A stretch of 64,000 nucleotides of DNA from a virus (IMGVR_UViG_3300037258_000352:1-64000); one strand, 5' to 3'. Counted from the first letter of the stretch, positions 41,027 to 57,614 are shown. Made by a program: numbers and translations. Notes: generated by a model not told the origin, from the letters alone.

Positions 41027-41131
41027 GCTGATCAATCCCTCCGTGTCCTCGTTCCGCTGTGCCTTACATCCCGTATAATCGCGAGGGCCGGCCCGGGTGT
41101 TACACCCTGACCGGCCCTGGATTCCCGACGC

Positions 41132-41638: not shown

Positions 41639-41710
41639 GTCGTCCTCCGTGTCTCCGGGCCGGTCCGCTCCGGCCCTCTGACCTGTCTATCGCCGCCCGG
41701 GCGCGGTTCG

Positions 41711-42034
41711 TTACCGGTGCCTAAACCCCCGCTTCACCAGCGCGCTGGTAATCACCTGGTCCGTCTGGACGGCTTTCCGGGCCGCCGCCAGCGTCGGGTA
41801 AGGGCCCTGCTCAGGGTCGGTGGACCAGCAGATCCCCACCCACCACTGACCCTTACCTCCGGTCGCTACTCCGTCGGCGTCGCGTTTGGTGACGTACCCG
41901 CCGGTAGTGGACTCCGTCCCGGCCTGTAGCAACACCACCTCGTACAAGGGGTAGTCGGCCCGGGACACGCTGAACTCCCTCACCCGCAACCGCAGCGCGA
42001 CAGTGCGCGCCTTGCGGGTTTTCGTGGTGGACAT
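41711..42034 (-). CDS. Hypothetical protein
   Basis: RBS GGGAGAGG. Confidence 0.65.
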   Translation of the reverse strand: MSTTKTRKARTVALRLRVREFSVSRADYPLYEVVLLQAGTESTTGGYVTKRDADGVATGGKGQWWVGICWSTDPEQGPYPTLAAARKAVQTDQVITSALVKRGFRHR

Positions 42035-42057
42035 GGCCTCTCCCTGGTCGTTGGTGG

Positions 42058-42201
42058 TCACGAGTTGCCGACGATGGTCACAGCGCCGGTGATGATCAGG
42101 GCCGCGACCACGACGAGTACCGCACCGGTCACACCGACGAAAGCGGCACCACCGACAGCAACCGTGACCGTGAGCCCAAGCAGGATCAAAATCACGGCCA
42201 T
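42058..42201 (-). CDS. Small two-TM protein
   Basis: Promoter motif and GACACGGAGG upstream. Confidence 0.65.
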   Translation of the reverse strand: MAVILILLGLTVTVAVGGAAFVGVTGAVLVVVAALIITGAVTIVGNS

Positions 42202-42276
42202 CGCGTGCCTCCTCCGTGTCTGGAGCGGGTCCGCACCCGCCCTACACACCTTGTATCGCTACCCGCCCCGCCGGTG

Positions 42277-42504
42277 TTACAGCGCGCACTCCGCGACGAT
42301 GGTCCGCATCGCCACCGTGACCGCGAGCCTGAACGCGTCGAGCTCGAACCTCGATCCCTCGATGACAACGTCGCATCCACCGGGACCGATGAGGACCAGA
42401 CCCCACCCATCGTTGGCGATCCGCGACCCGTCGGGCAGCACCTCCCCCGGGTAAGCGACCCGCACCGGCGCCGTCGCCGGCAGCGACTCCACACGCTCAG
42501 CCAT
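42277..42504 (-). CDS. Hypothetical protein
   Basis: RBS GGAG; stop is part of the next promoter. Confidence 0.6.
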   Translation of the reverse strand: MAERVESLPATAPVRVAYPGEVLPDGSRIANDGWGLVLIGPGGCDVVIEGSRFELDAFRLAVTVAMRTIVAECAL

Positions 42505-42524
42505 CACCAATCACTCCGATCCGG

Positions 42525-42899
42525 TTAGGGGCAGCACACCAGGCACGGTGGGTGCGAGGTCGCGCCGCAGTAGCACTCCGTTGGTGCGTCGTACTCGGGG
42601 GCGGGCCCGTGGTCGGGTGCCACTGGGCCGTGGCCCTTGCGGATCACGTTGCCCCGCCCGGGGTCCTCCCCGTCGCACAACTCCCGGTCACCACCGACGC
42701 CAGCGACGACCGCCCGCCATGGGGCCTGGGTCGCGATCCGTTCCACCCCGACCCGGCACCGTTGGCAAGACCCGAGCAGCGCGTCCCCCGCTGGGTCCGG
42801 TGCTGGCGTCGGTCGTTGCCGTGGGCGAGGTCTGCTAGCGACAACCGCCCGGGCGAGACCGATCACGCCGGCGTAGAACTCATCGGCCGGGCCCATCAC
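42525..42899 (-). CDS. Cys-rich hypothetical protein
   Basis: CQRC; C-terminal CYC...HPPCxxC. Confidence 0.6.
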   Translation of the reverse strand: MMGPADEFYAGVIGLARAVVASRPRPRQRPTPAPDPAGDALLGSCQRCRVGVERIATQAPWRAVVAGVGGDRELCDGEDPGRGNVIRKGHGPVAPDHGPAPEYDAPTECYCGATSHPPCLVCCP

Positions 42900-43008
42900 G
42901 CGGTCGGATCACTGATCAGGCAGAGCGGGCAGTAATCCACACCGACCGGCACCGGTGTACCGCACCCGACGCAGTCGGCCAGCTTCACCCACAATCGACA
43001 TAGGTATC

Positions 43009-43218
43009 TCACGCCCTGCTCCCTCCTTTGTTGGGTCGGATCTCGAAACCGGACATGGCTAGCGCGTGGTGCAGTGCGACGACGTCCTCATCGAACATCA
43101 CCGGCCACGGGCACCCACCGAGATTGCACACCGTCATCCCGTATCGGCAGGCTCGGTGACCCGACCGGATTTGCTCCACAACCTGTCGCAGCGCGGTCAG
43201 GCCAGCGTCCCCGGACAT
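43009..43218 (-). CDS. Hypothetical protein
   Basis: Coupled start. Confidence 0.55.
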   Translation of the reverse strand: MSGDAGLTALRQVVEQIRSGHRACRYGMTVCNLGGCPWPVMFDEDVVALHHALAMSGFEIRPNKGGSRA

Positions 43219-43397
43219 CAGAGCCACCCGTTCGCGAATCCGACCAGGGCCAGTTCGCGGTGCATCTTCACGATGGGCTCGGCTGCGTGGTCGGGGAGGA
43301 TCCACTCCAAACCGGTGGGATCTACGGTCCGCCAGGATTCGGGGATCGCGTCGGCGACCTGCTCGAAATTGCGTAACCACACCTCGTGAGTGGTCAT
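43218..43397 (-). CDS. Hypothetical protein
   Basis: GACACGGAGG upstream. Confidence 0.65.
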   Translation of the reverse strand: MTTHEVWLRNFEQVADAIPESWRTVDPTGLEWILPDHAAEPIVKMHRELALVGFANGWL

Positions 43398-43453
43398 TTG
43401 CTTCCGTCCTCCGTGTCCCAGCCGGGTCCGTCGCCCGGCGCTCGCTACCTGCG

Positions 43454-43669
43454 TCATCCCCTGGGGAGGATCCGTGTCCTCTCGCGGTACTCATTGCAAA
43501 TCCCGATGATCTGAGCGTCGCTGAGGTGTTGGACCACGCCGTGATCGGTGACCAATCGCCCCGCCGACTGCAAGATCTGTCGCATGACAGCCGGGACCAC
43601 AACCCGAGCTTTCTTCCCTTCCAGCGTGCGGTAGGTGACGAGGTGCTCAACCTCAGTGTCCGTGGACAT
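43454..43669 (-). CDS. Hypothetical protein
   Basis: Promoter motif plus AAGGGAGG RBS. Confidence 0.65.
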   Translation of the reverse strand: MSTDTEVEHLVTYRTLEGKKARVVVPAVMRQILQSAGRLVTDHGVVQHLSDAQIIGICNEYRERTRILPRG

Positions 43670-43740
43670 GGGGGCCTCCCTTGTCTCGGTGGCCCGGGTG
43701 GGGCCGCTCACTATCTGTATCGCCGCCCGGTGTGCGGGTG

Positions 43741-43944
43741 TTACGCCGCCCACGCGAGCAGTCCCGCATACACTGCTTCCTCGACCAGTTCCGGGTCCGG
43801 GATGTGGCGGATGAACTCCCGCTTCGCGCCGTCGTCGTGTTTCCCACCCGACTCGACCCGGATCGACCCGTACCCCAACAGGCGTTGCACGTAGGTCTGC
43901 TCCACCGTCAAATCGGTGTGCTCGCCCCCTGCATCTCCAGCCAA
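43741..43944 (-). pseudogene. Fragment of a bacterial PH-domain (bPH_2) protein
   Basis: VEQTYVQRLLGYGSIRVESGG...IPDP is the C-terminal half of the domain; no clear start. Confidence 0.55.
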
Positions 43945-43971
43945 CTAGTCCACGTCGTCGTGCACACAACC

Positions 43972-44424
43972 TCACCTCCACCTGTTAGCGCGGTCGATGG
44001 ACGCACCAACAGCCTCATCAACCGTGGGGTAGATATGGATCCCACGACGGGTGGCCAGTTCCCGGAGATAGGCGCGGGCACGGTTTAAGTCCTTCAACTC
44101 GCGCCCTGTGATGGTCTGGCCGTCGATCACAGTTCCGTCGGTGATGTTGTGGATGACGAGCAGGGCGTCGTACGAGTTGACGGTGGCCACGAACTCGGTC
44201 GCCTCCAGCATCGACGCGATGGCCCGGGTCTGGTGGTCGATGACGAACAGCACCTCAACGGACGCGATCTTCGCGTCGGCTTCGGCCTTCACGAGTTCTG
44301 GGGACCAGTCCTCAACTTGAGGGTTGTAGTAGGACACCCCCGCTGCCTCTAGCAGGGGGATGGCGATGTCCGCGCGCCACGTGGTCGGGTTGCAGCTTCC
44401 GCCTAGGAACAGGTGTGGCCTCAT
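43972..44424 (-). CDS. Nucleoside 2-deoxyribosyltransferase-like protein
   Basis: LFLGGSCNPTTWR...YYNPQVEDW...E...LFVIDxxTRAIASMLE. Confidence 0.75.
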   Translation of the reverse strand: MRPHLFLGGSCNPTTWRADIAIPLLEAAGVSYYNPQVEDWSPELVKAEADAKIASVEVLFVIDHQTRAIASMLEATEFVATVNSYDALLVIHNITDGTVIDGQTITGRELKDLNRARAYLRELATRRGIHIYPTVDEAVGASIDRANRWR

Positions 44425-44944
44425 TCGTTTACTCCTCCGTGTCTGTGCTGGCCCGCACCAGCAACCCCCAGGGTAAACCTGGGTGGTCCCAGCGTCAACG
44501 CTTACAACCTGTGTATCGGCCGGGACCACCACCGCGTTACACCCGCAGGTCCTCCCCAGGACACCGAGCCCGGAGACCCACCGGGTAATACCACCGGATC
44601 GTCGCGAAATCCTCCCCGGGAGCCAACAGTCCCAGGCGGGGTGTGTGACACCGGGCGCACCGCTGCTCGTACTCGGCGTGGTCACCCAACACCCCACGCG
44701 CCCCGGGTTCCCACACATGCCCACACATGCCCACCCAGGTCCGAGACAGCGACCGGGGTCGCCGGGGCCGAGGGTGGAGCGCCCACCGGCACGATCACAT
44801 AATCCGGATCGAGGGTCACCCCGTGGGTGTCGTAGGCACCGCACCGCAACGGCCGGCGGATCACGACGCCACCCGCCGGATCCGCACCACCACCGGCACG
44901 CCACCCGCACCGACCCGCCCTGCTCGTGGTGGACCTCGAAACTG

Positions 44945-45271
44945 TCATCCGGGAGCCGGCTCCACGCCCGCGCGGTGCTCCACCATCAACACATCCACCA
45001 CATGCCGAGTCAACCGCGGCGCGTACGGGTGCCCGTCATGCGGCGCGTCCCACGTCATCCACGGGATCCCCTGCTGCGCCTTCCCCAGGTCCGGGCGCAG
45101 CACGTGGGGGGCACCGCAAGTTCGGCATCCTGCGAGCCATTCCCACGGCACGTCCCCACCCAGCGTGAGGATCCCCACCTGGTGGGCGCTGCTTACCCCA
45201 CTCGCGGCGGCCGGGCCCACCGCAGGTTCTGGGGTTCCGTCACCCACCGGGTGACTACCACCTGTCGTCAC
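44945..45271 (-). CDS. Hypothetical protein
   Basis: Coupled ORF with CRTC. Confidence 0.5.
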   Translation of the reverse strand: MTTGGSHPVGDGTPEPAVGPAAASGVSSAHQVGILTLGGDVPWEWLAGCRTCGAPHVLRPDLGKAQQGIPWMTWDAPHDGHPYAPRLTRHVVDVLMVEHRAGVEPAPG

Positions 45272-45762
45272 GATCCCGGCGGCGTCCCCAAGAGCCGCAA
45301 CCCATCGACGTCGACGACGACCCGGACCCCCGGCGCCAACACCCCACCATTACGCGCGGCAGTCGCCGCCCCAGACGGCTCCAACCCCGCAGACACCAAG
45401 ACGTGCATCAACTGCGCCACCTCCACCTCACCAGCCGGCCACGACCGTCGACGACCCGACCCGCAACCAGGGTTCGCGGCCTGCAGGTAACCGCTCCGCG
45501 TCCAGTAGTCCAACGTCCGGTACGTCAACCCCGGGACCGCCTCCTGAATCTCCCGGTACGACACCGGGGCCTCCGTCACGACGGAGATGCACTTCTCGCA
45601 CCGCCGGCCGCGCCCGGTGTCCCGCCACGGCACCACCCGAGCTGGTTCCCCGCACAGGGTTTTCGCGCCGTCCACCGCGTGCGCGACAACGAATTCCGGG
45701 TCAGCGTGGCGACCTACCGTCTCCCGCCACACGACTGGTGTGTCCTCCCCTGGCCCGGGCAT
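45268..45762 (-). CDS. MerR-like HTH protein with N-terminal Zn finger
   Basis: GLTYRTLDYWTRSGYL...GSGRRRSW. Confidence 0.75.
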   Translation of the reverse strand: MPGPGEDTPVVWRETVGRHADPEFVVAHAVDGAKTLCGEPARVVPWRDTGRGRRCEKCISVVTEAPVSYREIQEAVPGLTYRTLDYWTRSGYLQAANPGCGSGRRRSWPAGEVEVAQLMHVLVSAGLEPSGAATAARNGGVLAPGVRVVVDVDGLRLLGTPPGS

Positions 45763-45989
45763 CAGCGGGACCCCGCGAGGAGGTCCCCCGAGTCACCGGA
45801 ATGAGCTGGCCCACGCACCGGGGCGACTGGCTCATCCTTGGGTGGGTTCGGGCAGAACCCCGGCGTCGACCCACACGCCACCACCGGGCCCTCCCGCATC
45901 ACCGCCCCCGCAGCGCCACCCACAACCCCCACCGCGAACGCCAACACCAGCGACACCACAAACACCACAACCTGCCGGTTCACCGCCAC
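45762..45989 (-). CDS. Small membrane/secreted protein
   Basis: N-terminal hydrophobic helix. Confidence 0.55.
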   Translation of the reverse strand: MAVNRQVVVFVVSLVLAFAVGVVGGAAGAVMREGPVVACGSTPGFCPNPPKDEPVAPVRGPAHSGDSGDLLAGSR

Positions 45990-46255
45990 CGCGGACCTCC
46001 TAACCGACTGAGCAAATCCACGAGGGGACCCACCTCAGTCACCGGTACCGATATTTGCCTCGTCGGATCCGAGTCAAGGTAAAACGACCAAGCGTCTCGT
46101 TCCGGGCTCCGGATCACGATCAGCGTCGATGGTGCCCCATCATGCCGCCGACCGGGTATCGCCACCCGAAGCTGCTCATTCTGCGGGACCTCCGCGTGCG
46201 GGCCAGGCAGGTCAACCAACTGCACGACACCTCCCCTATCGGAACGGACTGTCAC
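45980..46255 (-). CDS. Hypothetical protein
   Basis: Coupled ORF. Confidence 0.55.
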   Translation of the reverse strand: MTVRSDRGGVVQLVDLPGPHAEVPQNEQLRVAIPGRRHDGAPSTLIVIRSPERDAWSFYLDSDPTRQISVPVTEVGPLVDLLSRLGGPRWR

Positions 46256-46500
46256 CATCGGTGGGTGTCCGCTGTCCACCCGAAGAACCGGGATAAACGA
46301 CGCGGGTACCAACCTCGCCCACCACATTTACGGCACGCCCCCCGCACCACCACCCGGAAGATCAACGAAACCGCTTTCCGCCACCCAGCACCGTTGCACC
46401 GCAGGCACGCCTTTTCGGGACTTCGCCACGCGTTGTAGAGCATCGCCCCGGACCCACCGACAACGGCGACACCGGCCGCCTCAATCACGATCATGTCCAC
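46252..46500 (-). CDS. Small TM plus CxxCxGxG Zn-finger protein (AICE-associated type)
   Basis: CLRCNGAG...CRKCGGRG. Confidence 0.7.
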   Translation of the reverse strand: MDMIVIEAAGVAVVGGSGAMLYNAWRSPEKACLRCNGAGWRKAVSLIFRVVVRGACRKCGGRGWYPRRLSRFFGWTADTHRW

Positions 46501-46525
46501 CGTGGACCTCCCGGGTCCCTCGTGT

Positions 46526-46677
46526 GTCACGGGCACCTCCCGTGACACCGTCACGGCTAGTCACGGGCCGTGTCACGGCGTCGTCACGCGGGTTTGTCAC
46601 GGGCTGTCACGCGTGACAAACCCGGTGACCTCACACCCACCGCCCGCACCGTCCCCCCCGACTGTCACGGCTGTCAC
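46526..46677. repeat. GTCAC(G) repeat array, putative clt/TraB recognition locus
   Basis: Nine direct copies (46526, 46550, 46560, 46572, 46583, 46596, 46606, 46664, 46673) and three inverted (46542, 46613, 46625), intergenic, downstream of traB. Confidence 0.75.
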
Positions 46678-46687
46678 AGGGCCCGTG

Positions 46688-47137
46688 TCATACCTTGCTC
46701 GCGGCCATACTCCTTCGCTGGTGCAACATCCGCGCACCGCGCTCCAGCCTATGGAAATTGCGCATCAACAGCGGGGTCACTTCCCGCCGAGCGGTACGTA
46801 AATCGCCCACACCGAACAGTCGCCTAAATTCGGACAGGTCATCACACCCGGAGTCGTCTCCCCATGACTGGGAGTACCTGACGTCGTAGCCGTGGACTTT
46901 GTGGAGCCACAGGGCGATGGCTTGGACCCCAGCGACGAGGACGAGCCCGTATTCGTGGGGTTTCGCGTCGCAGTCGTTCCCGGAGAGTTCCACTTTCCCT
47001 TCCGCGCCGCCGCGGATGGGTTGGACATGCGCTTTCCGGGTTCGGATTTTCAGTTCCGTCGCGGTCAACGCATGCCCAGCTTCGTGGATAGCGACACCCA
47101 TGAGCAGATCAATCTCACGGGGTGGGGTGGGGGTCAT
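46688..47137 (-). CDS. HExxH metallopeptidase-like protein (M41/M50-like)
   Basis: AIHEAGHAL...LVAG..A...GCDDL. Confidence 0.7.
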   Translation of the reverse strand: MTPTPPREIDLLMGVAIHEAGHALTATELKIRTRKAHVQPIRGGAEGKVELSGNDCDAKPHEYGLVLVAGVQAIALWLHKVHGYDVRYSQSWGDDSGCDDLSEFRRLFGVGDLRTARREVTPLLMRNFHRLERGARMLHQRRSMAASKV

Positions 47138-48579
47138 GCTGCTGCCTCATTCCCCCCGACCTGCGGGTTCCGCACCGGAATCCACCCACGGTCAGACTTC
47201 TCGATCCGACCGTCCTTGGCCATGTACTTATAGAGACTGGCCCTTGACCACCCGCAATCAGCGAGGAGGTTGATAAACGAGTTCGCTTCCAACCGGTCCG
47301 TGCCGCTGGCCAGGAACTCGGTGACTACTTCGGCGAGGACCTCCGCGAACTCCTCCGGGGTCAGACCGTCTTTCGGGGGGTCCCCGATCATCCGGGCGAC
47401 TGTGGGGTGGGTGGGGGCGTCCGGGTCAGCGAGTTCCGTGTCATCGTCAAGGTCGGATGCGTCGAGCTCGAAATCAACGTCTCCGTCGTCGTTGGTGACG
47501 ATGATCCGGTCTCCGACCAGGGCCAGTTCCGACTCCTCAAGCTCGGGGTCGTCGTCGTAGAGCTCCTCGAGCGCGGCGAGGTACTCCGCGTCGTCGGGAT
47601 CGAACCCATCGATTTCGTCGTCATCAGCGTCGACGTCTATGGGGGTCGGTGCGACGGCTTGCGCCGCAGCGACCAACGCCGACCCAGTCACAGGACCGGG
47701 GACGATCATCCCGTTCTGCTTGACTAGGTCCAACGGGGTGATGTGAGTGGTCCACAAGTCCCCCAGCGAATCTGCGGTGACCTGGCACATGTCCCCGAGG
47801 TTCGCGGCGACATACGCGGCAGCCGACGCGAACGTGTGCTCACCGACCCCATCGGACCACGACCGGTGGGTCATCAACTTCTCCCGGACCGTCATCCCGG
47901 GACCGACGAGGTAGTGCATCCCGGGGTCGTCGGCGCCCCACTGCGACGGTTTCGCGCCGGCGTTGACGACTTCCTCTGGGAGGGAGTACTGGTCGTATTC
48001 GGAGTCGGTGATGCCGTACGCGCGGTAGGACCCCATCTGGTTCCGGACGGTGGTGGGGATGTTGTCCCAGGTTGGTTGCTGGATGCTGTACGTGAGTTGC
48101 CCACCAGCGGACCGCAACGCGACCGCGAGCCCGACGATCTCCTTGGACTCGGCCAGTCTCCACGCCTCTTCGATGTGGATCCGCAGGAACCGCAGGCTCG
48201 ATGACGGGGCCCACTGCTTGAGACCTTCCCTCGAGAGGTGGCTGGTCCGCTCCGGCAGGGTGCGGTTGAGGAGTTGCCGCAGGAGCCGCTTCGCGCGACC
48301 GGGGTCGATCTCGTACATCTGCAGGCACCCAGCGACGTCTTGGTAGGACTGGATGCCTTTGACGGTGTCAATCAAAATCTGGTCGATGCGCATCGCACCG
48401 CAGGTCAGCAGGACCGGGAGTTCCCCCCACGTCTTCCCGGAGCCGGTGGTCCCGGAGATCAGGCAGTGGACCCCACCCTCGGGTCGAGCGATTCTGAACA
48501 GGCCGGTTTCCCCGTCGGAGCGGCGGCTGACGGGGATCCCGGAGAACGGGTTCGCGCCCTTGAGGAGCTTGATCTTCAT
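47134..48579 (-). CDS. traB: TraB/FtsK-SpoIIIE DNA translocase, ATPase plus wHTH part
   Basis: Walker A GTTGSGKT, IDxxKGxQ, Walker B IHIEEA, RSAG, C-terminal winged-helix-like WSRASLY. Confidence 0.85.
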   Translation of the reverse strand: MKIKLLKGANPFSGIPVSRRSDGETGLFRIARPEGGVHCLISGTTGSGKTWGELPVLLTCGAMRIDQILIDTVKGIQSYQDVAGCLQMYEIDPGRAKRLLRQLLNRTLPERTSHLSREGLKQWAPSSSLRFLRIHIEEAWRLAESKEIVGLAVALRSAGGQLTYSIQQPTWDNIPTTVRNQMGSYRAYGITDSEYDQYSLPEEVVNAGAKPSQWGADDPGMHYLVGPGMTVREKLMTHRSWSDGVGEHTFASAAAYVAANLGDMCQVTADSLGDLWTTHITPLDLVKQNGMIVPGPVTGSALVAAAQAVAPTPIDVDADDDEIDGFDPDDAEYLAALEELYDDDPELEESELALVGDRIIVTNDDGDVDFELDASDLDDDTELADPDAPTHPTVARMIGDPPKDGLTPEEFAEVLAEVVTEFLASGTDRLEANSFINLLADCGWSRASLYKYMAKDGRIEKSDRGWIPVRNPQVGGNEAAA

Positions 48580-48581
48580 GA

Positions 48582-49409
48582 CTACTTCACTCCTACGAGC
48601 AGACCGGGCCACGGTTGGGCATCTTCGATGGGGTTGAGGTGCATGACGGTGACGTCACAGATTTGGGCGTTGCGGGACTTCGGGCGGGCGTAGACCTTCA
48701 TTGATCCGGGGGGGAACCCGTGCGCGGACTCCACCGAAGCGATGTCCCGCTGGAACTCCAGCATCGTGTCCCCCGGGGCGAGCCGGAGTGTGCCTTCGCT
48801 GCGGAACTCCGACACCCGCCGCAACGCGAGGGACGCCCCGTCGTGGCCGGCCATCTTCATGGGGGTGTCGGGTGGGTTCTGGGCGGCGAGGATCTCCGCG
48901 AGCTCCGCGACCCGATGCCTAGCGTTGATCCTGGTGTTCCAGATCGCGGCCAACGCGGACCCACCAGCGAAGAACGTCGCGATGGTGAACCCGTGGGTGG
49001 AGAACACCCACCCCGGGTTACCGGTGGTGAAGGTGATGAACCCGGTGATGGTGCACAGCGACAGCCACGCCCCCCCGAACGCGGTGGTGGCTACCCCGTG
49101 CCAGCGGGCGGTCCCGGTGTGGGACCGTTGGGTTTGCCACACCGAGTACGTCATCCCGATCGTCGCGACCATGATCAGCGCCACGGTCCCCGCCCGGCTC
49201 CACGCGGTTTCAACGAACGCGTGGAGCACGGTCCCCGCTAGCCAGAACAAGCCGAGGACGACCCACGGGATGAAGTGGACGGCGTGGTCGTGCAACGCGT
49301 GCCCGACCACGCCTCCGGATCCGGTGCGGGCACCCGTCCCAGCGCTGGGACCGCGCGGAGGAGCCGGCGGGCGTGTCTGCCGGGTGCTCGACCTGAATCC
49401 CTTACCCAT
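48582..49409 (-). CDS. TraB N-terminal membrane part, encoded as a separate gene
   Basis: Four TM helices then L.L.PG.T...PWPG, which normally precedes the ATPase in single-chain TraB. Confidence 0.75.
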   Translation of the reverse strand: MGKGFRSSTRQTRPPAPPRGPSAGTGARTGSGGVVGHALHDHAVHFIPWVVLGLFWLAGTVLHAFVETAWSRAGTVALIMVATIGMTYSVWQTQRSHTGTARWHGVATTAFGGAWLSLCTITGFITFTTGNPGWVFSTHGFTIATFFAGGSALAAIWNTRINARHRVAELAEILAAQNPPDTPMKMAGHDGASLALRRVSEFRSEGTLRLAPGDTMLEFQRDIASVESAHGFPPGSMKVYARPKSRNAQICDVTVMHLNPIEDAQPWPGLLVGVK

Positions 49410-49424
49410 TTCCGTTCCCCTGTC

Positions 49425-49817
49425 TTACGCGGCGTTACGCCGACGGTTGCCGCCGTTGTTCTGATTATTGTTCTGTCCACCCTGACCGTTGTTCTGGCCC
49501 TTCCGGGAACGGCTCGGGACGAACACGGCGCTGAGGATCCCTTCCGCGTTGCCCATCATTTTCGAGCAATGCGACATCAGCAACGCGGACCGGTGAAGGT
49601 CCCGAGCGATTCGAGCTGCCGCTTGCTCCTTCTCTTTCTGCGACATCAACGCCCCCCGCGACGGGGAATGAGCGAGACGCTTTTTAGCGACCCGGGAAAT
49701 GATTTGCATCTCCATTCCAGCGTTGAGGAACAAGTTAGCCATGTCGTGGATCCATGCGCGCATCGCACCGGGGTCACGCAATACTGCTTCGTCCGCTGTG
49801 CGCCTCGTGATACCCAT
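49425..49817 (-). CDS. TraA-like helical protein
   Basis: Position immediately upstream of traB; size and helical basic character. Confidence 0.5.
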   Translation of the reverse strand: MGITRRTADEAVLRDPGAMRAWIHDMANLFLNAGMEMQIISRVAKKRLAHSPSRGALMSQKEKEQAAARIARDLHRSALLMSHCSKMMGNAEGILSAVFVPSRSRKGQNNGQGGQNNNQNNGGNRRRNAA

Positions 49818-49861
49818 TGCCTTTTACCCTCTCTCGATTTCCTTGGTGTGCCTGACTTCGA

Positions 49862-50365
49862 TCAGCCGTTGCAGCCGGCGCAATGGACGGGGATCCCCGC
49901 GCAACCCTTCCCGCTGCGGGACATGGCCAGCAGCATCACCAGCGCGAGGACAATCCCTAACCCGACTGTCCCCTCAGCGACCGCGGCGCCGTGGACCCCG
50001 AACCACGTTCCGATCCCGTGGATGATCCGGTAGAGCCCGTACATTCCCAGCGACGCGCTGCCGGCGATCAGGGCGTATTTCACGATCGGGCCGGCGGCGA
50101 TGACGTAGTCGATGGCTTCGACTTGGGATCCGTCGGGGATCCCGATGGGGATGGTGGGTGCGCCTGGGGTGACGAACACCCGGTAGGTGACCTGCCCCGG
50201 GGTGACCGGGGTGAGTTGCTCCGGGGTGCGGACCGCGACACCCATCTCCTGGTACCGGCCCGCCGTGTACATCACGTCAGCGAGGTAGCCGTTCAGGACC
50301 CGTTCCTCGATCTGGGTGATCGTGGTGGTCGGGTGGGTGGTGGGGATGAGCTGGGTGGGTGACAT
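49862..50365 (-). CDS. Spd-like membrane protein
   Basis: Two TM; C-terminal CAGIPVHCAGC. Confidence 0.55.
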   Translation of the reverse strand: MSPTQLIPTTHPTTTITQIEERVLNGYLADVMYTAGRYQEMGVAVRTPEQLTPVTPGQVTYRVFVTPGAPTIPIGIPDGSQVEAIDYVIAAGPIVKYALIAGSASLGMYGLYRIIHGIGTWFGVHGAAVAEGTVGLGIVLALVMLLAMSRSGKGCAGIPVHCAGCNG

Positions 50366-50389
50366 GGCGGGGTCTCCGGGGTGGGTGGG

Positions 50390-51256
50390 TTACGCCGCGA
50401 GGACGCGGGCGAGTTGGCGGGCGGTGGTGTCGGTGACCCGGTACCCCACCGGGAGGCGGGTGGGGAGCTCAGTCATGAGGACCCGACGGCCGGTGGTGAG
50501 GCCCCGCTGCCCCCGCTCGTCCCGGAGTTCCCGGGCGGCGGCGTAGATGGTGGGGTCCACCCCGGGGGGTGGGGTGGTGGCGTTCGGTGTGGGGACGAGT
50601 TCCAGCTCCACCCCGGGGTGCGGAGTCCCGGGGTGGGCTGGCTCGTCCCCCGCGGGGGTGTGGGTGGGGGGCACCGTCACCCGGGGGAAGTCCCCCGCGG
50701 GGTCGAGGTCTGGGGTGGGGTCACCCGTGGTGCGGTCCGAGAGGCCCCGGAGGTCGGCCAGGAGGGATTCGAGTTCCGCGTCGACGTCGTCGAGTTCACC
50801 CGTGGGGGAGGTGTCCAGCTCGGTGCGGATCTCCGCGAAGTGTCGACGGACCCGGGGGGCGGCTTCCGCTAGGAGCAGGATCAGGCCGGGGGCTACGGAG
50901 TGCAGCAGGATCCCCGACGGGACCGCTGCGGCGGCGGACACCCAAATGTTCATCGCCCAGGTCGCGATGCCGGCGAACCACATGGTCCCGGTGAGCCAGG
51001 GTTCTTTCCGGCCGTAGTCGGCGAGGATGCTCCCGAACACGATCGCGGTCCCGAGGGTGATGGAGGCCATTGGGTCGAGGAGCCACGCGATCCACCACTC
51101 GAAGCTGTGCCAAGGGTGGCCTGCGGATGCGAATCGTTGGACGTTGACCATCGTGAACACGAGGGCCAGCACAGCGACGGCGGTCAGGGCGTAGGCACCC
51201 CAGCGGCCCATGCGGGTCAACCATTCCGCCTCGTCGCGCTGGTTGGTGGTGTCCAT
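50390..51256 (-). CDS. Spd/DUF2637-like spread protein
   Basis: Four TM (IAWLLDPM...HSVAPGLILLLAEAAP), Pro-rich linker, C-terminal HTH-like end. Confidence 0.7.
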   Translation of the reverse strand: MDTTNQRDEAEWLTRMGRWGAYALTAVAVLALVFTMVNVQRFASAGHPWHSFEWWIAWLLDPMASITLGTAIVFGSILADYGRKEPWLTGTMWFAGIATWAMNIWVSAAAAVPSGILLHSVAPGLILLLAEAAPRVRRHFAEIRTELDTSPTGELDDVDAELESLLADLRGLSDRTTGDPTPDLDPAGDFPRVTVPPTHTPAGDEPAHPGTPHPGVELELVPTPNATTPPPGVDPTIYAAARELRDERGQRGLTTGRRVLMTELPTRLPVGYRVTDTTARQLARVLAA

Positions 51257-51423
51257 CGGTGCTGGTCCTTTCCCCGTAGGTTGTTTGGTGGTGCCGTCCG
51301 GTCGAGGTCTGTAATCGGCGCCCGACCGGACAGCACCTTGTGATGTTACATCCCTACGTGTTAGCACATGCGACACCCGGTCACGTTACATACTGAATAC
51401 CCAGTATAGGTAGACTCCGTGAC

Positions 51424-52260
51424 ATGACGGGATCAATCGGGGCCGGGCTACGCCGGCGACAACTCGCGGAGATACTCACCGAGCTCCGCAAGACCAGCGG
51501 TAAAGACCAGGTCGCCGCTGCTGCGGCGTGTGACTGCTCCCGACCTCAGATCAGCAATTTCGAGTCCGGGAGATACGTCCCGAGCCGGTTGGAGCTCCCC
51601 GCCCTGCTGGAGTGCTACGGCGCGCTGGACCGGCTCCCTGAGCTGGAGGAACTCCGGGCCGCGGCGAACGAACCAGGCTGGTACTCGACGTATGGCCTGC
51701 CGGTGTGGTTGCAGTCCTATGTGCGGCTTGAGGACGACGCGATCCAGGTTCGGTGTTTCGCGTCTGGTCTGGTCCCGGGGCTGCTGCAAACCCAGGACTA
51801 CGCCCGGACGGTTCAGCAGGAACACGGGGCCAGCACCCCGGAGGTTCAGCGGCGGCTCGCGGTCCTCGCGGGACGGCAGAAGCGGCTAGGGATAGGGATG
51901 ACCCTGTCCGTGGTGGTGTCGGAGGCGTTGCTGCACCTGACCGTGTGTATGGGTGAGGTGGGGGTGGAACAGCTCGCGAGTCTCGCGGCGACGAGGGTCG
52001 CGGAGGTCCTGGTCCTGCCGTACTCGGCGGCCCTGACGCGGGGGATCGGTCACTGGACGGTCCTCGACTTCCCGATGGGGGTGTCCCCGGTCGCGTATGA
52101 GGAACATGCGATCGGTGGGCACCTAGCGGATGATCGGGGACTGGTAGGGAAGTTGGCCTCGCTGTATCAGGAGCTGCACTCCGCGGCTCTATCAGTGGAG
52201 GACAGTGCAACGAAGATCAGGCAGGTCATGGGTCTAACCAAGGAAGGGACAAGGCGATGA
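51424..52260 (+). CDS. XRE-family regulator with DUF5753 domain
   Basis: RRRQLA..L..LR...ISNFESG...VPGLLQTxDYA; leaderless after TAGACT. Confidence 0.92.
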   Translation: MTGSIGAGLRRRQLAEILTELRKTSGKDQVAAAAACDCSRPQISNFESGRYVPSRLELPALLECYGALDRLPELEELRAAANEPGWYSTYGLPVWLQSYVRLEDDAIQVRCFASGLVPGLLQTQDYARTVQQEHGASTPEVQRRLAVLAGRQKRLGIGMTLSVVVSEALLHLTVCMGEVGVEQLASLAATRVAEVLVLPYSAALTRGIGHWTVLDFPMGVSPVAYEEHAIGGHLADDRGLVGKLASLYQELHSAALSVEDSATKIRQVMGLTKEGTRR

Positions 52261-52478
52261 AGATCGAAGGCGTCGACGTTGGGCAGGTTGGGGAGTTCGT
52301 GAAGGCGACCGCGAGCGAGTCGGTGGACAAGTGTGTGTCCGTCGCGGTGACGAGCACGGGGCATCGGGTGGTGCGGCATTCCACGCGGGTCGGTGGTGCG
52401 GAGATCCCGTTCGATCGGGATGAGTGGTCCGCGTTCCTCGTCGGGGTCCATGCGGGTGAGTTCGACATCGCCGACTGA
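52257..52478 (+). CDS. DUF397 protein
   Basis: KATAS...CVSVA...VRHS...F...EW.AFL..V.AGEFD. Confidence 0.88.
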   Translation: MKIEGVDVGQVGEFVKATASESVDKCVSVAVTSTGHRVVRHSTRVGGAEIPFDRDEWSAFLVGVHAGEFDIAD

Positions 52479-52584
52479 CCGGTGTGGTGTGGGGCGGTCC
52501 CTTCGCGAGACGCGGGCGAGGGGACCGTCGCCGTTTCCGGGGTGTAACGCCGGCTGGGGTGTGGCCGATACAGGGGTGTAAGCG

Positions 52585-52637: not shown

Positions 52638-52647
52638 GACACGGAGG
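52638..52647 (+). promoter_or_regulatory. GACACGGAGG start-associated sequence, 1 of 14 exact copies
   Basis: + 52638, 53155, 53532, 56608, 56796, 58970; - 26428, 36727, 40072, 41038, 41644, 42211, 43408, 44434. Confidence 0.85.
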
Positions 52648-52657
52648 AATCAAGGCG

Positions 52658-53080
52658 ATGGGCAAGTACAACCTCGGCGACATCAGGGTCAGCTACCACG
52701 CCACCGCCTACGCGGTGAACGGCAAAGCCATCAACCATGGTCACTTCTACGCTGACTTCGACTCGATCGAGGCTGCCCGTGAATGGGCTGGCCGGTTGTT
52801 CCGCGACCAGCACACGCGCTACGGACAGTCTCAGGTCGGCTCGGTCCAGATCCACGGCCGGGAGATGACGCTGGGGATCGAGGGTTGGAACGAGACCAGC
52901 GATTTCAGCAAGTCGCACTACGAGACGGTCCTGACCGACCAACCCATCGTGCTGGGCGCTGCTGATCTAGCGCTGCGCTGCTACGACACGACCGTGATGG
53001 ACTACTTCGAGACGGTCCACCCCCGCCGCGTTGACGGCACCTGCCACTGCGGGGACCCAACCCGCAACGTGAGCCTCTGA
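52658..53080 (+). CDS. Hypothetical early protein
   Basis: First gene after the tandem promoters. Confidence 0.75.
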   Translation: MGKYNLGDIRVSYHATAYAVNGKAINHGHFYADFDSIEAAREWAGRLFRDQHTRYGQSQVGSVQIHGREMTLGIEGWNETSDFSKSHYETVLTDQPIVLGAADLALRCYDTTVMDYFETVHPRRVDGTCHCGDPTRNVSL

Positions 53081-53171
53081 TCGTTTCCTCTACCCCCGGC
53101 TGGGATGACCTGCACCTGAGCGTCAGGCCGCTAATCCCCCCGGGGGACTCCCCCGACACGGAGGGCAAGCC

Positions 53172-53384
53172 ATGTTCACCATAGGGATCGTGTTGATCCT
53201 CCTGAAACTCGTGGGGGTGCTCTCCTGCTCGTGGACGGTCCTGCTGGTCCTCGTCGCGGTGATGGAGATCGCCCGGTGGGTGTGGGCAGTGATCCAGTTC
53301 GGGACCCTCGTCACCGCTGTTCGGCGGTCGCCGGTCCGGAGGACACGGCGGTCTCGCCCCCGGTCCCGCCAGCGGTTGTTCTGA
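53172..53384 (+). CDS. Small membrane protein
   Basis: LILLKLVGVLSCSW..VL. Confidence 0.7.
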   Translation: MFTIGIVLILLKLVGVLSCSWTVLLVLVAVMEIARWVWAVIQFGTLVTAVRRSPVRRTRRSRPRSRQRLF

Positions 53385-53408
53385 ACACGGGAGAGGAGGA
53401 CGGAGGCC

Positions 53409-53513
53409 ATGACTGACCGTCTGTTGGGTGACGAGTTCTACGCCGAGCTGGACGCGATCGACGCCCTGCTCGATGAGGCTGAGGCGGCGTTACCCATCGA
53501 AGCCGACAAGTAG
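53409..53513 (+). CDS. 34-aa acidic peptide
   Basis: GGAGG RBS; MTDRLLGDEFYAELDAIDALLDEAEAALPIEADK. Confidence 0.55.
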   Translation: MTDRLLGDEFYAELDAIDALLDEAEAALPIEADK

Positions 53514-53555
53514 CGGGATCCGAGCACCACCGACACGGAGGACAGAGCGGATGGC

Positions 53556-54008
<453 letters not shown>

Positions 54009-54055
54009 CTAGTACGGAGTGACCACCGTAAATCAACGAACACGGAGGAGTCATC

Positions 54056-54247
54056 ATGGCATGGCGGCGTAGGCGCAGGCACAACGAGGGCATCTTCTAC
54101 ATGGACACGAGCCGGTTCCGGCCGTCGTCGTGGGGTGTGCACATCGCGGCGTTGACGTACAACGTCACCCGGCATATCGGGAGTATCCGGTTGCCGTTTG
54201 GGTTCGGGTCGTTGACCTTCGGGTCTGGGCGGCGGGGGCGTCGGTGA
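54056..54247 (+). CDS. Small basic protein
   Basis: AACACGGAGGAG RBS. Confidence 0.65.
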   Translation: MAWRRRRRHNEGIFYMDTSRFRPSSWGVHIAALTYNVTRHIGSIRLPFGFGSLTFGSGRRGRR

Positions 54248-54546
54248 TGCGCACGCTCACGGATCTCGTTCCGTTCCCGTTGGTGACGTCGGGCCGGCAC
54301 GGGTACTGGGGTGCGAGTCCCATGCTCAAAGTCCTGACCTACGCCCTGCGTGGCGCGCTCGAGACCGGGGAACCGACCGGGTCGATCGTGTTGCAGATCG
54401 GTGGGGAACTCCTCAACGAGCGGGCCCCGACACCGGATGAGATGGACTTCAACGAGGACGCGTACTGGGAGCGGCAGCGTGAGCTCCAGCAGGGCGTTGT
54501 GGGAGTCCGAGGTCGAGCCGCACTCGGAGGGTGTGTTCTCCCATGA
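54247..54546 (+). CDS. Hypothetical protein
   Basis: Coupled ORF. Confidence 0.6.
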   Translation: MRTLTDLVPFPLVTSGRHGYWGASPMLKVLTYALRGALETGEPTGSIVLQIGGELLNERAPTPDEMDFNEDAYWERQRELQQGVVGVRGRAALGGCVLP

Positions 54547-55505
54547 GTGAGTTCCTGCCGTCGGACTACCTGACCCACGACACCCCCGCCGGACCGAGGT
54601 TCGCTTACCCGCGACCGCAGTTAGAGGACTACCCCTCTCATTGGCAAGACAAGCCAGCGGTGACGTGGGCGACCCCAGACGAGTCGTGGGTCACGATCGT
54701 TGAGGTCGGGTCGTGGCTTGTCGCGGACACCCCGGTTCGGGTGGTCACCGCGTCGTGGCTGCCGCCGACCCGACCGGGCCCATGGCGGAAGACAACGGAC
54801 CCACCGCTGGATCCGTACGCCCGGCCAGCGTGGGACGCGGCACCAGAGGTGCCTCCTGCGGAGGAGGTGGAGCATCACGACACCCACTTGGTGGAGACCT
54901 GTCTGCGGTGTGAACTCTTCCGGGTTCTGCACGACCGGCCCAGGGTTCAGTCACCACCAGAGACCCGGACCGTGGATTTCACGTCATGGGTCCCGCTGCC
55001 TGGTGCACCGGACCCCGACCCGGACAAGCAGTGGGTCCTCAACGATTCGAGCGCGGTCGCGGTCTACGGCGCGCACACCGCGCACCTGTGGCCCGGGTAC
55101 CTCCCCGGGTTCCGGGACCGGGTGTACGAGCTGCTGCAGGCCGACCCGCGGGTTCAGTACGTGTTCGACGCGAAGAACCACCGTGACCAGACACCCGGGT
55201 CGCTACAAACAACCGTGCCGATTAGGTGGGACACCCCGAAGACATCGATCCGGTCGAGGACCGGTGCCCGGGGTCAGAAGCTGCGGGGTCGGGAGGAGAT
55301 CCCGCAGCCGATCGCGCACTCCGCCCGGACAACGCTCGTGGTTCCCACCGGGGTATCCGGCGCGACCAAGGCGGAAGCGTTGGCCCGGTGGGACTCCGAG
55401 ATCGCCCGTTACGTGGGGCTGCTGGTCCCAGTCGATGTGGTCACCTGCAACCGGTGTGACGGGCACGGTCACCTGCTGGCCCGCGACGTCGAGGAGGAGA
55501 CATGA
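54543..55505 (+). CDS. Hypothetical protein with CxxC motifs
   Basis: 320 aa; C-terminal CNRCDGHG. Confidence 0.75.
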   Translation: MSEFLPSDYLTHDTPAGPRFAYPRPQLEDYPSHWQDKPAVTWATPDESWVTIVEVGSWLVADTPVRVVTASWLPPTRPGPWRKTTDPPLDPYARPAWDAAPEVPPAEEVEHHDTHLVETCLRCELFRVLHDRPRVQSPPETRTVDFTSWVPLPGAPDPDPDKQWVLNDSSAVAVYGAHTAHLWPGYLPGFRDRVYELLQADPRVQYVFDAKNHRDQTPGSLQTTVPIRWDTPKTSIRSRTGARGQKLRGREEIPQPIAHSARTTLVVPTGVSGATKAEALARWDSEIARYVGLLVPVDVVTCNRCDGHGHLLARDVEEET

Positions 55506-55690
55506 CGGCGACCACCGTGGTCGTGTTGCCGTTGCTGTGCGGGACCGGTCTGGTCCTAGCCCTGGTCGGGCTCGCGCTCGTCGTGCAGCTACGCCGACTA
55601 CCCGAGGACGGGACGTCGTGGTTCGTGGTGGGTGTGGGGATCGTGGTGTTCCTCGCGATCCTGGGCTTGATGACCGCAGGAGGGGCGTGA
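55502..55690 (+). CDS. Small two-TM protein
   Basis: Hydrophobicity; RBS GAGGAGGAG. Confidence 0.65.
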   Translation: MTATTVVVLPLLCGTGLVLALVGLALVVQLRRLPEDGTSWFVVGVGIVVFLAILGLMTAGGA

Positions 55691-55914
55691 TGGCCGTCCC
55701 TCCCGATTGGACCTGCCTGCTCTCCGCGTTGAAACTCATCAGCCGGGGTGGCTACAACGACATCTCCCCGTTCCATTGCGAGACCGACGTGTTGACGGTC
55801 ATGGCCGACCCCGAGATGTTCACCAGCACCGAGCTAGATCAGCTCGCCGAGTGGGGTTTCGATGCCGGGCCGGATGCTGGCACGTTCACCTCTCGCCGTT
55901 TCGGGAGCGCGTGA
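55690..55914 (+). CDS. Hypothetical protein
   Basis: Coupled; PFHCE.D.L...L.EWGF...F.S.RFGSA. Confidence 0.7.
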   Translation: MAVPPDWTCLLSALKLISRGGYNDISPFHCETDVLTVMADPEMFTSTELDQLAEWGFDAGPDAGTFTSRRFGSA

Positions 55915-56261
55915 TGAGCCGGTTCGATTACAACGTCGCCCGGACCCTACGGATCGCGGACACCCCATTCGGCGGGCTGGTCATGGCCGCGATCCTCAAG
56001 TCCGACCCGCACAACCGGGCGCTGCTCCGCGCGGTGTTCCCCGACGTGTGGGACGAGCTCAACGCCCGGGAGAACGCTCCCGGTGGGCACCTGGACAGTG
56101 ATGACGTCCCGGTCCGGTTGGTCGTGACCGAGGTGGGTCCGGGCGAACCCCTGTTGCGGCCGGTGTGCCCGCGCTGCGAGCGACCGTGGACCGAGCCAGC
56201 GTGTGGGGTCATCCACCAGATCATCGGCGCGGACGGGCGCCTCCACATCTACCCGCTATGA
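55914..56261 (+). CDS. Hypothetical protein
   Basis: Coupled ORF. Confidence 0.7.
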   Translation: MSRFDYNVARTLRIADTPFGGLVMAAILKSDPHNRALLRAVFPDVWDELNARENAPGGHLDSDDVPVRLVVTEVGPGEPLLRPVCPRCERPWTEPACGVIHQIIGADGRLHIYPL

Positions 56262-56554
56262 CGACGCCTTCCGGGCCGTGAAGGGTCGTCGGCTCAACGT
56301 TCATCACACGTTCGTCCTCGTCGGAGGAGAGAGGTGGTACGCCGTGATCGACGGTGAGATCGTCAGTGTCCGGCCGGTGGAGCTCGCGGAGTCCCGGGGT
56401 ACCGGTACGTGTGTGCATTGCCAGGGGGAGTGCCGGTCCTATTGCAAGTCGTGTCGTAAGCCGGTGTGCTCGGGTGACTTCGACGTTCACCGGGGGGATC
56501 ACGACCCGGAGGACCGGACCGCGACGTGGACCCGAACCGCCTCCCTAGCCAACA

Positions 56555-56583
56555 TTGACGGTATGTAGGTTGAAGTGTAGCCT
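56555..56583 (+). promoter_or_regulatory. Sigma-A-type promoter
   Basis: TTGACG-N17-TAGCCT. Confidence 0.75.
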
Positions 56584-56631
56584 TGAGGGAGTCGGTGCGG
56601 ACCGGCAGACACGGAGGGACCAAAGATCACG

Positions 56632-56772
56632 ATGGACAGGAAAGAGATCAGCCGGGCGCTGGCCAAGGCGATCGCCTACAAGAACTGCGGCAAAGAAGAC
56701 GAAGCCCGAGAGTGGGCCCGGAAGCTGATCGAACTCCTAGAGCTCGCTGAAATCCTGACCAAGGAAAGCTGA
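56632..56772 (+). CDS. 46-aa helical protein
   Basis: Follows promoter and GACACGGAGG; MDRKEISRALAKAIAYKNCGK... Confidence 0.7.
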   Translation: MDRKEISRALAKAIAYKNCGKEDEAREWARKLIELLELAEILTKES

Positions 56773-56813
56773 GCGCGGGTCTGACGGGGACCTGGGACAC
56801 GGAGGACACGATC

Positions 56814-57356: not shown

Positions 57357-57610
57357 AACCGACACCCGACGTTGAGATCACCGGGACCGCGACCCGGATG
57401 AACGTCGAACCCGACCCGGTGACCGGGGGGATCGTCCTGGTCACCTACGCGGAAATGGACGACGGTCGAGTCGGTCGGGTGTGGCTGAGGATCCCCGCGG
57501 ACGCGCTCGCCTACTTCACGGACCGGCTCCCGCCGGCCCCGTCGGACCCGACGGTCGACCCGCCCTCGCCGGCCCACTGCACGGGCCGGCGTGTTGTTGG
57601 GCGGTGGTGA
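57353..57610 (+). CDS. Hypothetical protein
   Basis: Coupled ORF. Confidence 0.6.
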   Translation: MKPTPDVEITGTATRMNVEPDPVTGGIVLVTYAEMDDGRVGRVWLRIPADALAYFTDRLPPAPSDPTVDPPSPAHCTGRRVVGRW

Positions 57611-57614
57611 CCAG

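Follow-up and report, generated by a model that had tools for sequence, protein, structure and literature searches.

The tailed phage described here, the IMG/VR record IMGVR_UViG_3300037258_000352 (104,286 bp), carries a split TraB, a clt-like repeat array and an Spd-type gene within an island of about 8 kb. The window, that is the whole stretch of DNA that was analysed, corresponds to bases 1-64,000 of this record. The phage may possess a working, long-kept version of the double-stranded DNA (dsDNA)-moving system of Streptomyces plasmids, for which virion-independent passage between hyphal compartments or hyphae is the best-supported role, at a probability that we place at roughly 0.5. This role is favoured because the nearest characterised systems act in this manner and an Spd-type gene is present. 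What was observed directly comprises the genes with their homology and conservation, the array, and the association of the array with TraB across phages. An initial annotation of the window had placed a conjugation module in a tailed-phage genome; a module of the TraB, Spd and clt type does lie in a genuine complete phage, but the descriptions of its genes were corrected. The central features are as follows.

44541-52543, no strand: island of about 8 kb without phage leader or promoter motifs
50390-51376, minus: Spd-type membrane protein, 328 amino acids (aa), about four transmembrane helices and a Pro-rich tail (homology, phrog_25954, 1.7e-6)
48582-49409, minus: TraB-N, membrane domain and soluble linker domain, 275 aa (plasmid_TraB, 4.6e-14)
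47134-48579, minus: TraB-C, FtsK/SpoIIIE-type motor, acidic linker and C-terminal winged helix, 481 aa
46526-46677, nine cores plus and three minus: clt-like array of 12 GTCAC(GG) cores, 152 non-coding bases

The two-gene TraB

The NCBIfam model plasmid_TraB matched TraB-N at model positions 5-211 (4.6e-14, 51.8 bits) and TraB-C (481/492 aa; 47134-48612) at positions 249-626 of 639 (1.3e-43, 149.5 bits). The profile check suggested in the initial annotation for TraB and Spd was therefore borne out by matches of plasmid_TraB to both open reading frames (ORFs), but not by any match to Pfam DUF2637. TraB-C has the features of an FtsK/SpoIIIE-type ATPase, with Walker A (GTTGSGKT) and Walker B (HIEE) motifs of which the defining residues (GxxGxGK and hhhhEE) are invariant across 12 relatives. 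The Pfam FtsK_SpoIIIE match on TraB-C was 0.002; among phage families, the motor matched phrog_24831 (5e-38) and, weakly, the phage FtsK-like phrog_1358 (1.8e-6). A single traB with transmembrane, ATPase and winged helix-turn-helix (HTH) parts had been annotated. The homology to plasmid_TraB, the Walker motifs and the winged-helix model described below agree with this, but the membrane domain is encoded by a separate upstream gene of 275 aa and not on the same polypeptide. The annotated traA-like gene lost its support at the same point, as the ORF upstream of the motor is the N-terminal domain of TraB itself.

The junction between the two genes is compact. TraB-N ends with PWPGLLVGVK and a TAG codon, followed after 2 nt by the ATG AAG ATC of TraB-C in another frame, and an AGGAG sequence is located 10 nt upstream of this ATG. 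Metagenome relatives were recovered for both halves: 12 proteins for TraB-C (472-517 aa, 49-84% identity) and 14 stand-alone proteins for TraB-N (241-281 aa, 48-84% identity). Several pairs of such relatives are on equally long contigs (110,561; 35,619; 17,033; 5,183 and 5,169 bp). Fused homologs of 746-775 aa are collinear with both halves, TraB-N corresponding to their residues 2-284, and nothing is lost at the junction. In the motor-domain tree the split forms constitute one clade (Shimodaira-Hasegawa-like approximate likelihood ratio test, SH-aLRT, 99), nested among fused forms. The conservation of the halves, the invariance of the catalytic residues and the coupled junction make a pseudogene or a sequencing error very unlikely. 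Judged by its sequence, the module is very probably functional and under selection.

A complex model of TraB-C residues 1-330 with TraB-N residues 160-275 scored 0.88, the best of three controls scoring 0.00; this mark is reached by 58 of 80 solved complexes and by 2 of 110 mismatched pairs. Contacts were reproduced between runs to at least 96%, the predicted local distance difference test (pLDDT) value of the partner is at least 82, and the modelled interface is formed between the last 13 residues of TraB-N and the first 25 of TraB-C. It should be noted that in such modelling the score expresses likeness to the fused relatives and not binding, the halves of split genes tending to pass in this way. 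For TraB of pSVH1, two-hybrid tests have shown an interaction between the N-terminal part and the C-terminal (translocase) part (PMC4447253).

The AlphaFold model of the whole motor was poor (pLDDT 54.5). Its best PDB neighbours, all weak, were EssC, EccC, TcpA (a conjugation coupling protein) and FtsK motors, and a search of PDB sequences with the motor profile gave no match. The last 90 residues of TraB-C, modelled from an alignment of 15 phage TraB tails, are predicted to adopt a helix-helix-helix-hairpin winged helix (pLDDT 79). In the fold search the nearest PDB entries were winged-helix DNA-binding domains, all at E > 0.1, with nothing at E <= 0.001; the C-terminal winged helix characteristic of TraB is thus present as a modelled fold.

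The phage TraB shares 30-35% identity with plasmid TraBs over about 55-60% of its length, within the motor only. In a tree with a small plasmid sampling of five sequences, it is grouped with phage and metagenome sequences, beside and not within four Streptomyces plasmid TraBs. Recent capture from a plasmid or from an actinomycete integrative and conjugative element (AICE) is therefore disfavoured. As a separate observation, one relative, P0008 (831 aa), contains an intein-like insert exactly at the Walker A P-loop, and residues 223-581 of the 797-aa product of another gene of this phage (82507-84900, beyond the window) share 46% identity with this insert.

The repeat array and its counterparts in other phages

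The array is located 444 bp past the TraB-C stop, with one gene between, inside a 193-bp intergenic gap upstream of the gene at 46252-46494. Its cores follow the consensus nGTCACGGn and are spaced by 7-16 bp, one gap of 39 bp excepted; 12 were observed, against a chance expectation of about 0.7. A perfect 13-bp inverted repeat is located at 46589-46624. Seven of the 41 genome copies of GTCACGG are found inside 145 bp, and the exact sequence TGTCACGG has five of its seven window copies in the array. In an unbiased scan of all 6- to 8-mers the array was the strongest non-coding cluster of the 104-kb genome, its sole rival being a coding (TQ)n tract, so the clt-like array reported in the initial annotation is well founded. 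In known clt loci, TraB recognises direct 8-bp repeats that are arranged in arrays (PMC4447253). Short direct repeats of 7-9 bp beside a tra gene, often with inverted repeats, are typical of clt, and this arrangement is found here. The array is probably the docking site of the TraB winged helix, as comparison of the sequences suggests. The number of its repeats varies between strains: a variant in a rhizosphere/soil run has one extra 11-nt unit, GTCATGGCGTC, at 46571.

Outside the array, GTCACGG is distributed unevenly, with 26 copies on the minus strand and 8 on the plus strand, in genes of both orientations (rank 6 of 1210 7-mer pairs). This bias could be that of a polar guide sequence or could be due to chance. 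Separately, one exact TGTCACGG copy at 51417-51424 (minus), within the divergent promoter region, directly adjoins the start codon of the XRE/DUF5753 gene.

The strongest new evidence, obtained by comparing sequences, is the co-occurrence of TraB-like genes and arrays in other phages. A profile scan recovered TraB relatives on 25 IMG/VR contigs, whereas tblastn of the TraB motor against 50,697 INPHARED phage records gave no match at E < 1e-5; the survey for phage traB suggested earlier was thus empty in one collection and productive in the other. Among the 100-150 kb phages of IMG/VR, at least three lineages have TraB-like genes with similar arrays behind them. A leading word cluster, taken as one of the top two for 6- or 7-mers and picked for closeness to the TraB-like gene, is located 2-1370 bp after the TraB-like stop in 15 viral loci, at a distance of no more than 24 bp in 9 of the 15.

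One example is the IMG/VR phage G001. It has a 153-kb genome with 54% guanine-plus-cytosine (GC) content, bounded by terminal repeats; portal, capsid and tape measure (1872 aa) are its own, and it shares almost no structural-gene similarity with the phage studied. Its TraB is fused (758 aa) with a motor that is 41-43% identical, and the word cluster that ranks first in the whole genome, CTGTCAC(GG), is located 880 bp downstream of traB. In G005 (146 kb), whose capsid is 79% identical to that of G001, GTCACG(A) repeats are found 940 bp downstream of traB. A further lineage of about 130 kb with 35-45% GC (L023-L026, L029, L030, L032, L043 and L044, all from IMG/VR) has TraB-like genes of 610-645 aa and GGTGAC(A)-type arrays, mostly 2-13 bp past the stop and in some cases up to 1.4 kb. 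Among the low-GC contigs, eight encode a tape measure, which has 2,068-2,252 aa in those with a complete reading frame. HK97-type capsid matches were obtained in 15 of 24 contigs, 8 of these over the family cut-off. Neither a tyrosine integrase nor ParB was found in the three large genomes tested (G001, G005 and G026).

The motifs of the arrays differ by group, including GGTGACA, GGGTGAC, GGTTACA, TGTCGCGA and GGTGCCAC. The predicted recognition helix GRSRAWLHKQL is paired with GGTGAC(A), GW(S/A)R..(L/M)YKY with TGTCAC(GG), and TSRGWLNDQL with TGTCGCGA. It can be observed that the array motif varies with the predicted helix, similar helices having similar motifs and different helices different ones. 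For two further properties of a clt, the need for it in cis during transfer and its binding by the cognate TraB, this covariation is indirect evidence.

The phage genome, the island and neighbouring genes

The contig is a complete tailed-phage genome from soil, with direct terminal repeats of 127 bp at the record ends and a CheckV completeness of 100%. Structural genes in the window were named by PHROG profiles, and a head-tail adaptor was recognised in the window in addition to those listed here.

2951-5722: portal
6828-9338: MuF/protease fusion
10968-13151: major capsid
14008-14979: major tail protein
22178-25348: tape measure, 1056 aa
98490-100253, beyond the window: large terminase

A phage-type replication initiator, a RecE-like exonuclease and a DNA methyltransferase are also encoded beyond the window. 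Identity of the capsid to its counterparts in large Gordonia and Arthrobacter phages is low, at about 35%. The phage collection searched contained no near-identical DNA, and two scans of metagenome contigs and one of genome contigs returned no relative. Six-frame profile searches of the whole genome found no tyrosine integrase, no serine-recombinase domain, no ParB (ParB_N) and no ParA-type ATPase (AAA_31). Virion genes and a phage-type initiator are accompanied by no ParA or ParB match, which separates this genome from phage-plasmids of the pZL12 type.

Parts of the stretch are contained in 11 soil/rhizosphere runs from 11 studies, one of which is possibly the source sample; RNA runs are not among the runs listed. 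Short Logan contigs from four other soil/rhizosphere runs of different studies cover the island and its flanks at similar low depth. One contig (52469-52696) bridges the right island edge, and none of these short contigs spans the left edge. Two reported joints were discarded, as their 21-letter sides and high depth indicated other organisms.

The island is defined by the phage regulatory motifs that surround it. The leader motif GACACGGAGG has 27 copies in the genome, 14 of them at window positions 36727-58970, and a promoter-like motif, GTAAC-N16/17-CGAT, has 18. To the left these motifs extend over 36727-44434 (minus) and 44515 (minus), reaching 44,515-44,540; to the right they resume at 52544 (plus) and continue over 52638-58970 (plus), with none between the two flanks. 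The annotated presence of the same motifs on both sides was thus correct for both motifs. The island occupies the point from which the phage transcription units run apart to left and right, and its GC content is ordinary. Nothing identifies it as a separate AICE with its own att ends: an AICE has an integrase and flanking att repeats, and here searches of the whole genome detected neither a tyrosine nor a serine integrase and, in agreement with the initial annotation of the module edges, no att-like direct repeat longer than 12 bp was present there. A scan of the island for sigma-70 promoters and terminators gave nothing above chance. In a side comparison, the leader GACACGGAGG was seen to contain GACACGG, one mismatch from the array unit GTCACGG, and GACAC is common to the pWTY27 clt repeat TGACACC.

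On the minus strand the genes follow in transcription order as those for the 328-aa, 167-aa and 130-aa proteins, TraB-N, TraB-C and the 149-aa protein, then the repeat array and a protein of 80-100 aa. The genes of the island and its surroundings other than traB and the Spd-type gene are listed below.

45268-45762, minus: 164-aa protein with MerR-type HTH (weak, 8.5e-4, just under the cut-off), inside the island
46252-46494, minus: small protein with one transmembrane helix and two CxxC pairs (zinc-ribbon-like), directly downstream of the array
46688-47137, minus: 149-aa stand-alone FtsH-type (Peptidase_M41-like, HEAGH) metalloprotease domain, its start overlapping the TraB-C stop
49425-49817, minus: 130-aa helical protein with an Asn/Gln/Arg-rich tail
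49862-50365, minus: 167-aa protein with one or two C-terminal transmembrane helices
51424-52260, plus: XRE-family HTH and DUF5753 regulator (Sco1979-like), divergent from the transfer genes
52257-52478, plus: DUF397 protein, the usual partner of an XRE/DUF5753 regulator
53556-54008, plus: SsgA-like protein (PF04686, 1.2e-17), just beyond the island and behind a phage leader motif

The 328-aa Spd-type protein has tblastn matches on 23 actinomycete plasmids, and on the plasmids that were inspected the match is the gene following traB; homologs adjacent to traB occur on plasmids of Streptomyces, Kitasatospora and Pseudonocardia. Its pairwise E-value is 6e-25 to the 506-aa TraB neighbour of an S. 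platensis plasmid and 1e-11 to phiC31 gp25, the phiC31/phiBT1 gp25 proteins being homologous. In other plasmids the annotation of the gene beside traB is DUF2637; the 328-aa protein had no match to Pfam DUF2637 at E 0.01 and a pairwise E-value of 0.012 to one annotated DUF2637 protein. Of the features of the SpdB2/DUF2637 group, it accordingly has that of a multi-transmembrane homolog of a plasmid traB-adjacent gene and lacks the Pfam match. Several spd-like genes had been annotated, but only this one has demonstrable homology. Profile searches found no homolog of the 167-aa membrane protein, and none was established for the 130-aa protein: a similarly built protein precedes traB in G001, at a non-significant E of 0.013. 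The Spd-type protein likewise has no significant similarity to its G001 counterpart.

The small CxxC protein matched DnaJ_CXXCXGXG at 4e-5, under the cut-off. The divergent XRE/DUF397 pair was confirmed at the positions listed. Together with the SsgA-like gene, this pair would, on sequence grounds, point to a sporulating, mycelial actinomycete as the host; more distant relatives of the tape measure occur in Pseudonocardia and Frankiales genomes. The contigs found with the tape measure had no length in common with those of the TraB relatives.

Three further observations were made in this region. The 149-aa M41-like gene is translationally coupled to the TraB motor gene, and its Atlas structure resembles M41 domains (TM-score 0.74-0.84). 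The SsgA-like protein has an N-terminal (TQ)8 repeat, encoded by a DNA repeat of GACGCA (7.7 copies, 53561-53606). A nucleoside 2-deoxyribosyltransferase-like gene is located about 5 kb or less from traB in both this phage (43972-44420, minus) and G001 (31552-31998), with 52% identity.

Proposed mechanism, rival explanations and known systems

Within the proposed process, TraB would assemble from two subunits, TraB-N providing the membrane part and TraB-C the FtsK-type ATPase motor with its winged helix. The winged helix would dock on the GTCAC(GG) array one gene downstream, which would act as clt, and the motor would then drive the phage genome across the membrane where hyphae touch or at cross-walls, assisted by the Spd-type protein. 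Phage DNA could thereby reach adjacent hyphal compartments, or other hyphae nearby, with no need for virions or receptors. Of these steps, the binding of DNA, the coming together of the TraB halves and transfer of any kind are inferred from the sequence. Since neither an integrase nor ParA or ParB was found, there is no evidence for donor lysogens. With no lysogeny or partition genes found, the process would therefore most likely be the spread of replicating phage DNA during infection, not mating from stable lysogens; classical mating is no more probable than such spread within the mycelium. A broader and more tentative proposal is that TraB and its docking array form a recurrent movement module of large (100-150 kb) phages without integrase or partition genes, by which infection might pass as naked dsDNA between hyphal compartments or hyphae in the manner of plant-virus movement proteins, the pump of the present phage having evolved into a two-subunit machine with separate anchor and motor.

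Several points weigh against transfer between hyphae. The scores of TraB-C (149.5 bits) and TraB-N (51.8 bits) are far under the NCBIfam equivalog cut-off of 800, and a two-gene TraB has no experimentally tested precedent. Also missing is the GntR-type TraR/KorA regulator that usually accompanies such systems, and the array, which is directly upstream of the next gene as well, could be an operator. The hosts of the phages of about 130 kb with 35-45% GC may be non-mycelial, in which case a role not tied to hyphae is possible. Finally, the evidence comes from a genome assembled from a metagenome.

Two of the alternatives are very improbable. That plasmid DNA was joined into a phage contig during assembly is barely credible. 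The genome was assembled from short metagenome reads and no long read spans the island, yet phage motifs flank the island on both sides within one circularly closed contig, pieces of island and flank recur in the four other runs with one contig across the right edge, and other complete phage genomes have the same type of module. A decaying remnant of a captured plasmid or AICE, with the split TraB as a frameshifted pseudogene and the module inert, would explain why TraB occupies two frames, why its scores fall so far under the equivalog cut-off and why phage regulatory motifs are missing from the island. However, even relatives of only 48% identity preserve both halves undamaged, together with unchanged catalytic residues and the same junction; the split forms trace back to one origin, the junction has signals for translational coupling, integrase, Rep and att are all missing, and TraB belongs to a phage/metagenome clade. 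This reading is very improbable and, as far as sequence conservation can tell, largely refuted.

The other two alternatives retain a working pump. The main rival is segregation, in which a membrane-anchored pump loaded at the array would clear or direct phage DNA through closing septa, especially those formed at sporulation. The phage genome, which does not integrate, would in this way enter spores or daughter compartments and persist there in a carrier state. TraB is built like FtsK and SpoIIIE, which do exactly such septal DNA clearing (PMC4447253), an SsgA-like sporulation-septation gene is located 1 kb from the island, a phage with neither integrase nor ParAB would need another route of persistence, and the strand bias of dispersed GTCACGG is of the kind that polar guides would have. 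This bias is, however, based on 34 sites only and is opposite to the main orientation inside the array; the SsgA-like gene is beyond the island behind a phage leader motif, and the nearest characterised relatives (plasmid TraB, the Spd-type neighbour and clt) act in transfer and spreading. Segregation is accordingly considered unlikely, though it deserves more weight than the remaining alternatives. Somewhat less probable again is that the array is no dock for TraB but an operator, iteron or partition-like site for the XRE, MerR-like or zinc-ribbon protein, the TraB-like pump then having another role, such as the exclusion of incoming DNA. Such a site would be in keeping with the 193-bp gap upstream of 46252-46494, the perfect inverted repeat and the exact TGTCACGG copy abutting the XRE start, and the link between array and TraB is so far a predicted one. 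Against this, a TraB-like gene is the only gene always beside such arrays in unrelated phages and a plasmid, while the other neighbours differ; the motif tracks the C-terminal helix of TraB; and the replication initiator is 39 kb away. Docking of TraB at the array and passage of DNA between hyphae thus remain the preferred interpretation.

The proposal of a hybrid between phage and conjugative element, made in the initial annotation, remains plausible, the module being neither a chimera nor an AICE, but it has a precedent in pZL12 and pCQ3 and gains no evidence of lysogens. The Streptomyces plasmid-phage pZL12 reportedly combines plasmid replication, phage particles and conjugal transfer. According to Zhong et al. 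(2010, J Bacteriol 192:3747), as cited in PMC3583192 and also in PMC4487206, its tra gene is needed for conjugal transfer. A conjugating phage is accordingly not new in kind, as a tested precedent exists. Like the present phage, pZL12/phiZL12, pCQ3, pSLE1 and pSAM1 have a tailed-phage gene set and a Streptomyces-type FtsK-like Tra gene on one replicon. The known elements of this type are plasmids of 85-94 kb, with ParB_N in pCQ3, pSLE1 and pSAM1, whereas the phage studied has 104 kb without ParA, ParB or integrase; the split TraB and the Spd-type gene also distinguish it from them. Its overlap with pCQ3 is limited to TraB (30% identity), the terminase (32%) and a small number of domains. TraB of pCQ3, 4 kb from the terminase, scores 849.9 bits, above the equivalog cut-off, and an array of six CTGACA repeats begins at its stop. 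About 37 Streptomyces plasmid records, the listed ones mostly of 85-94 kb, have a terminase about 30-33% identical to that of the phage. In pCQ3 (NC_013449.1, 26163-28568) and several related Streptomyces plasmids the terminase matches in two pieces around an annotated HNH endonuclease gene, and the pCQ3-type terminase appears to be interrupted. Judged by sequence comparison, the present phage is set apart by its lineage, the lack of recognisable maintenance or integration genes, the split TraB and the clade of that TraB.

The TraB-clt-Spd systems of pSVH1, pIJ101 and pJV1 (Thoma et al. 2015, PMC4447253) resemble the module in their membrane-anchored FtsK-like motor with a C-terminal winged helix, in the short direct-repeat array next to traB and in the multi-transmembrane Spd-type gene beside it. 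The module described here differs in its location in a phage genome, its two-gene TraB, the absence of TraR/KorA and the single recognisable Spd-type gene. The Tra protein of pWTY27 footprints on TGACACC repeats (PMC3583192). This clt repeat is close to the TGTCACGG unit of the phage and one letter from the TGTCACC/GGTGACA units that follow TraB-like genes in several viral contigs; it is located at or just past the 3' end of tra, with four repeats on a 14-kb plasmid, whereas the phage has 12 cores and one gene between traB and array. SpdB2 homologues have previously been noted on the actinophages phiC31 and VWB. The phiC31/phiBT1 gp25 protein is homologous to the 328-aa protein of this phage and may be the SpdB2 homologue meant in the literature; phiC31 and VWB are 41-kb temperate phages, in which the tblastn search with the TraB motor had no match. 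FtsK and SpoIIIE with their KOPS and SRS guide sequences belong to the same motor superfamily and also read sequence through a winged helix. Proteins annotated as FtsK/SpoIIIE-like are present in the Streptomyces phages Geonosis, Jaresh and AndoPrime, and the papers describing these phages assign no role to them.

The novelty of the finding is bounded by the pZL12 plasmid-phage with its tra genes and by the SpdB2 homologues noted on actinophages. The conserved two-gene TraB nevertheless offers a naturally occurring test case for the assembly of FtsK-type pumps from membrane and motor parts, and array motifs that vary with the winged helix over many phages provide a data set for the DNA recognition code of TraB. 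If the module works, the spread of a phage in mycelial bacteria need not use virions and receptors, which would change the view of host range, plaque formation, resistance and gene flow in soil actinomycetes.

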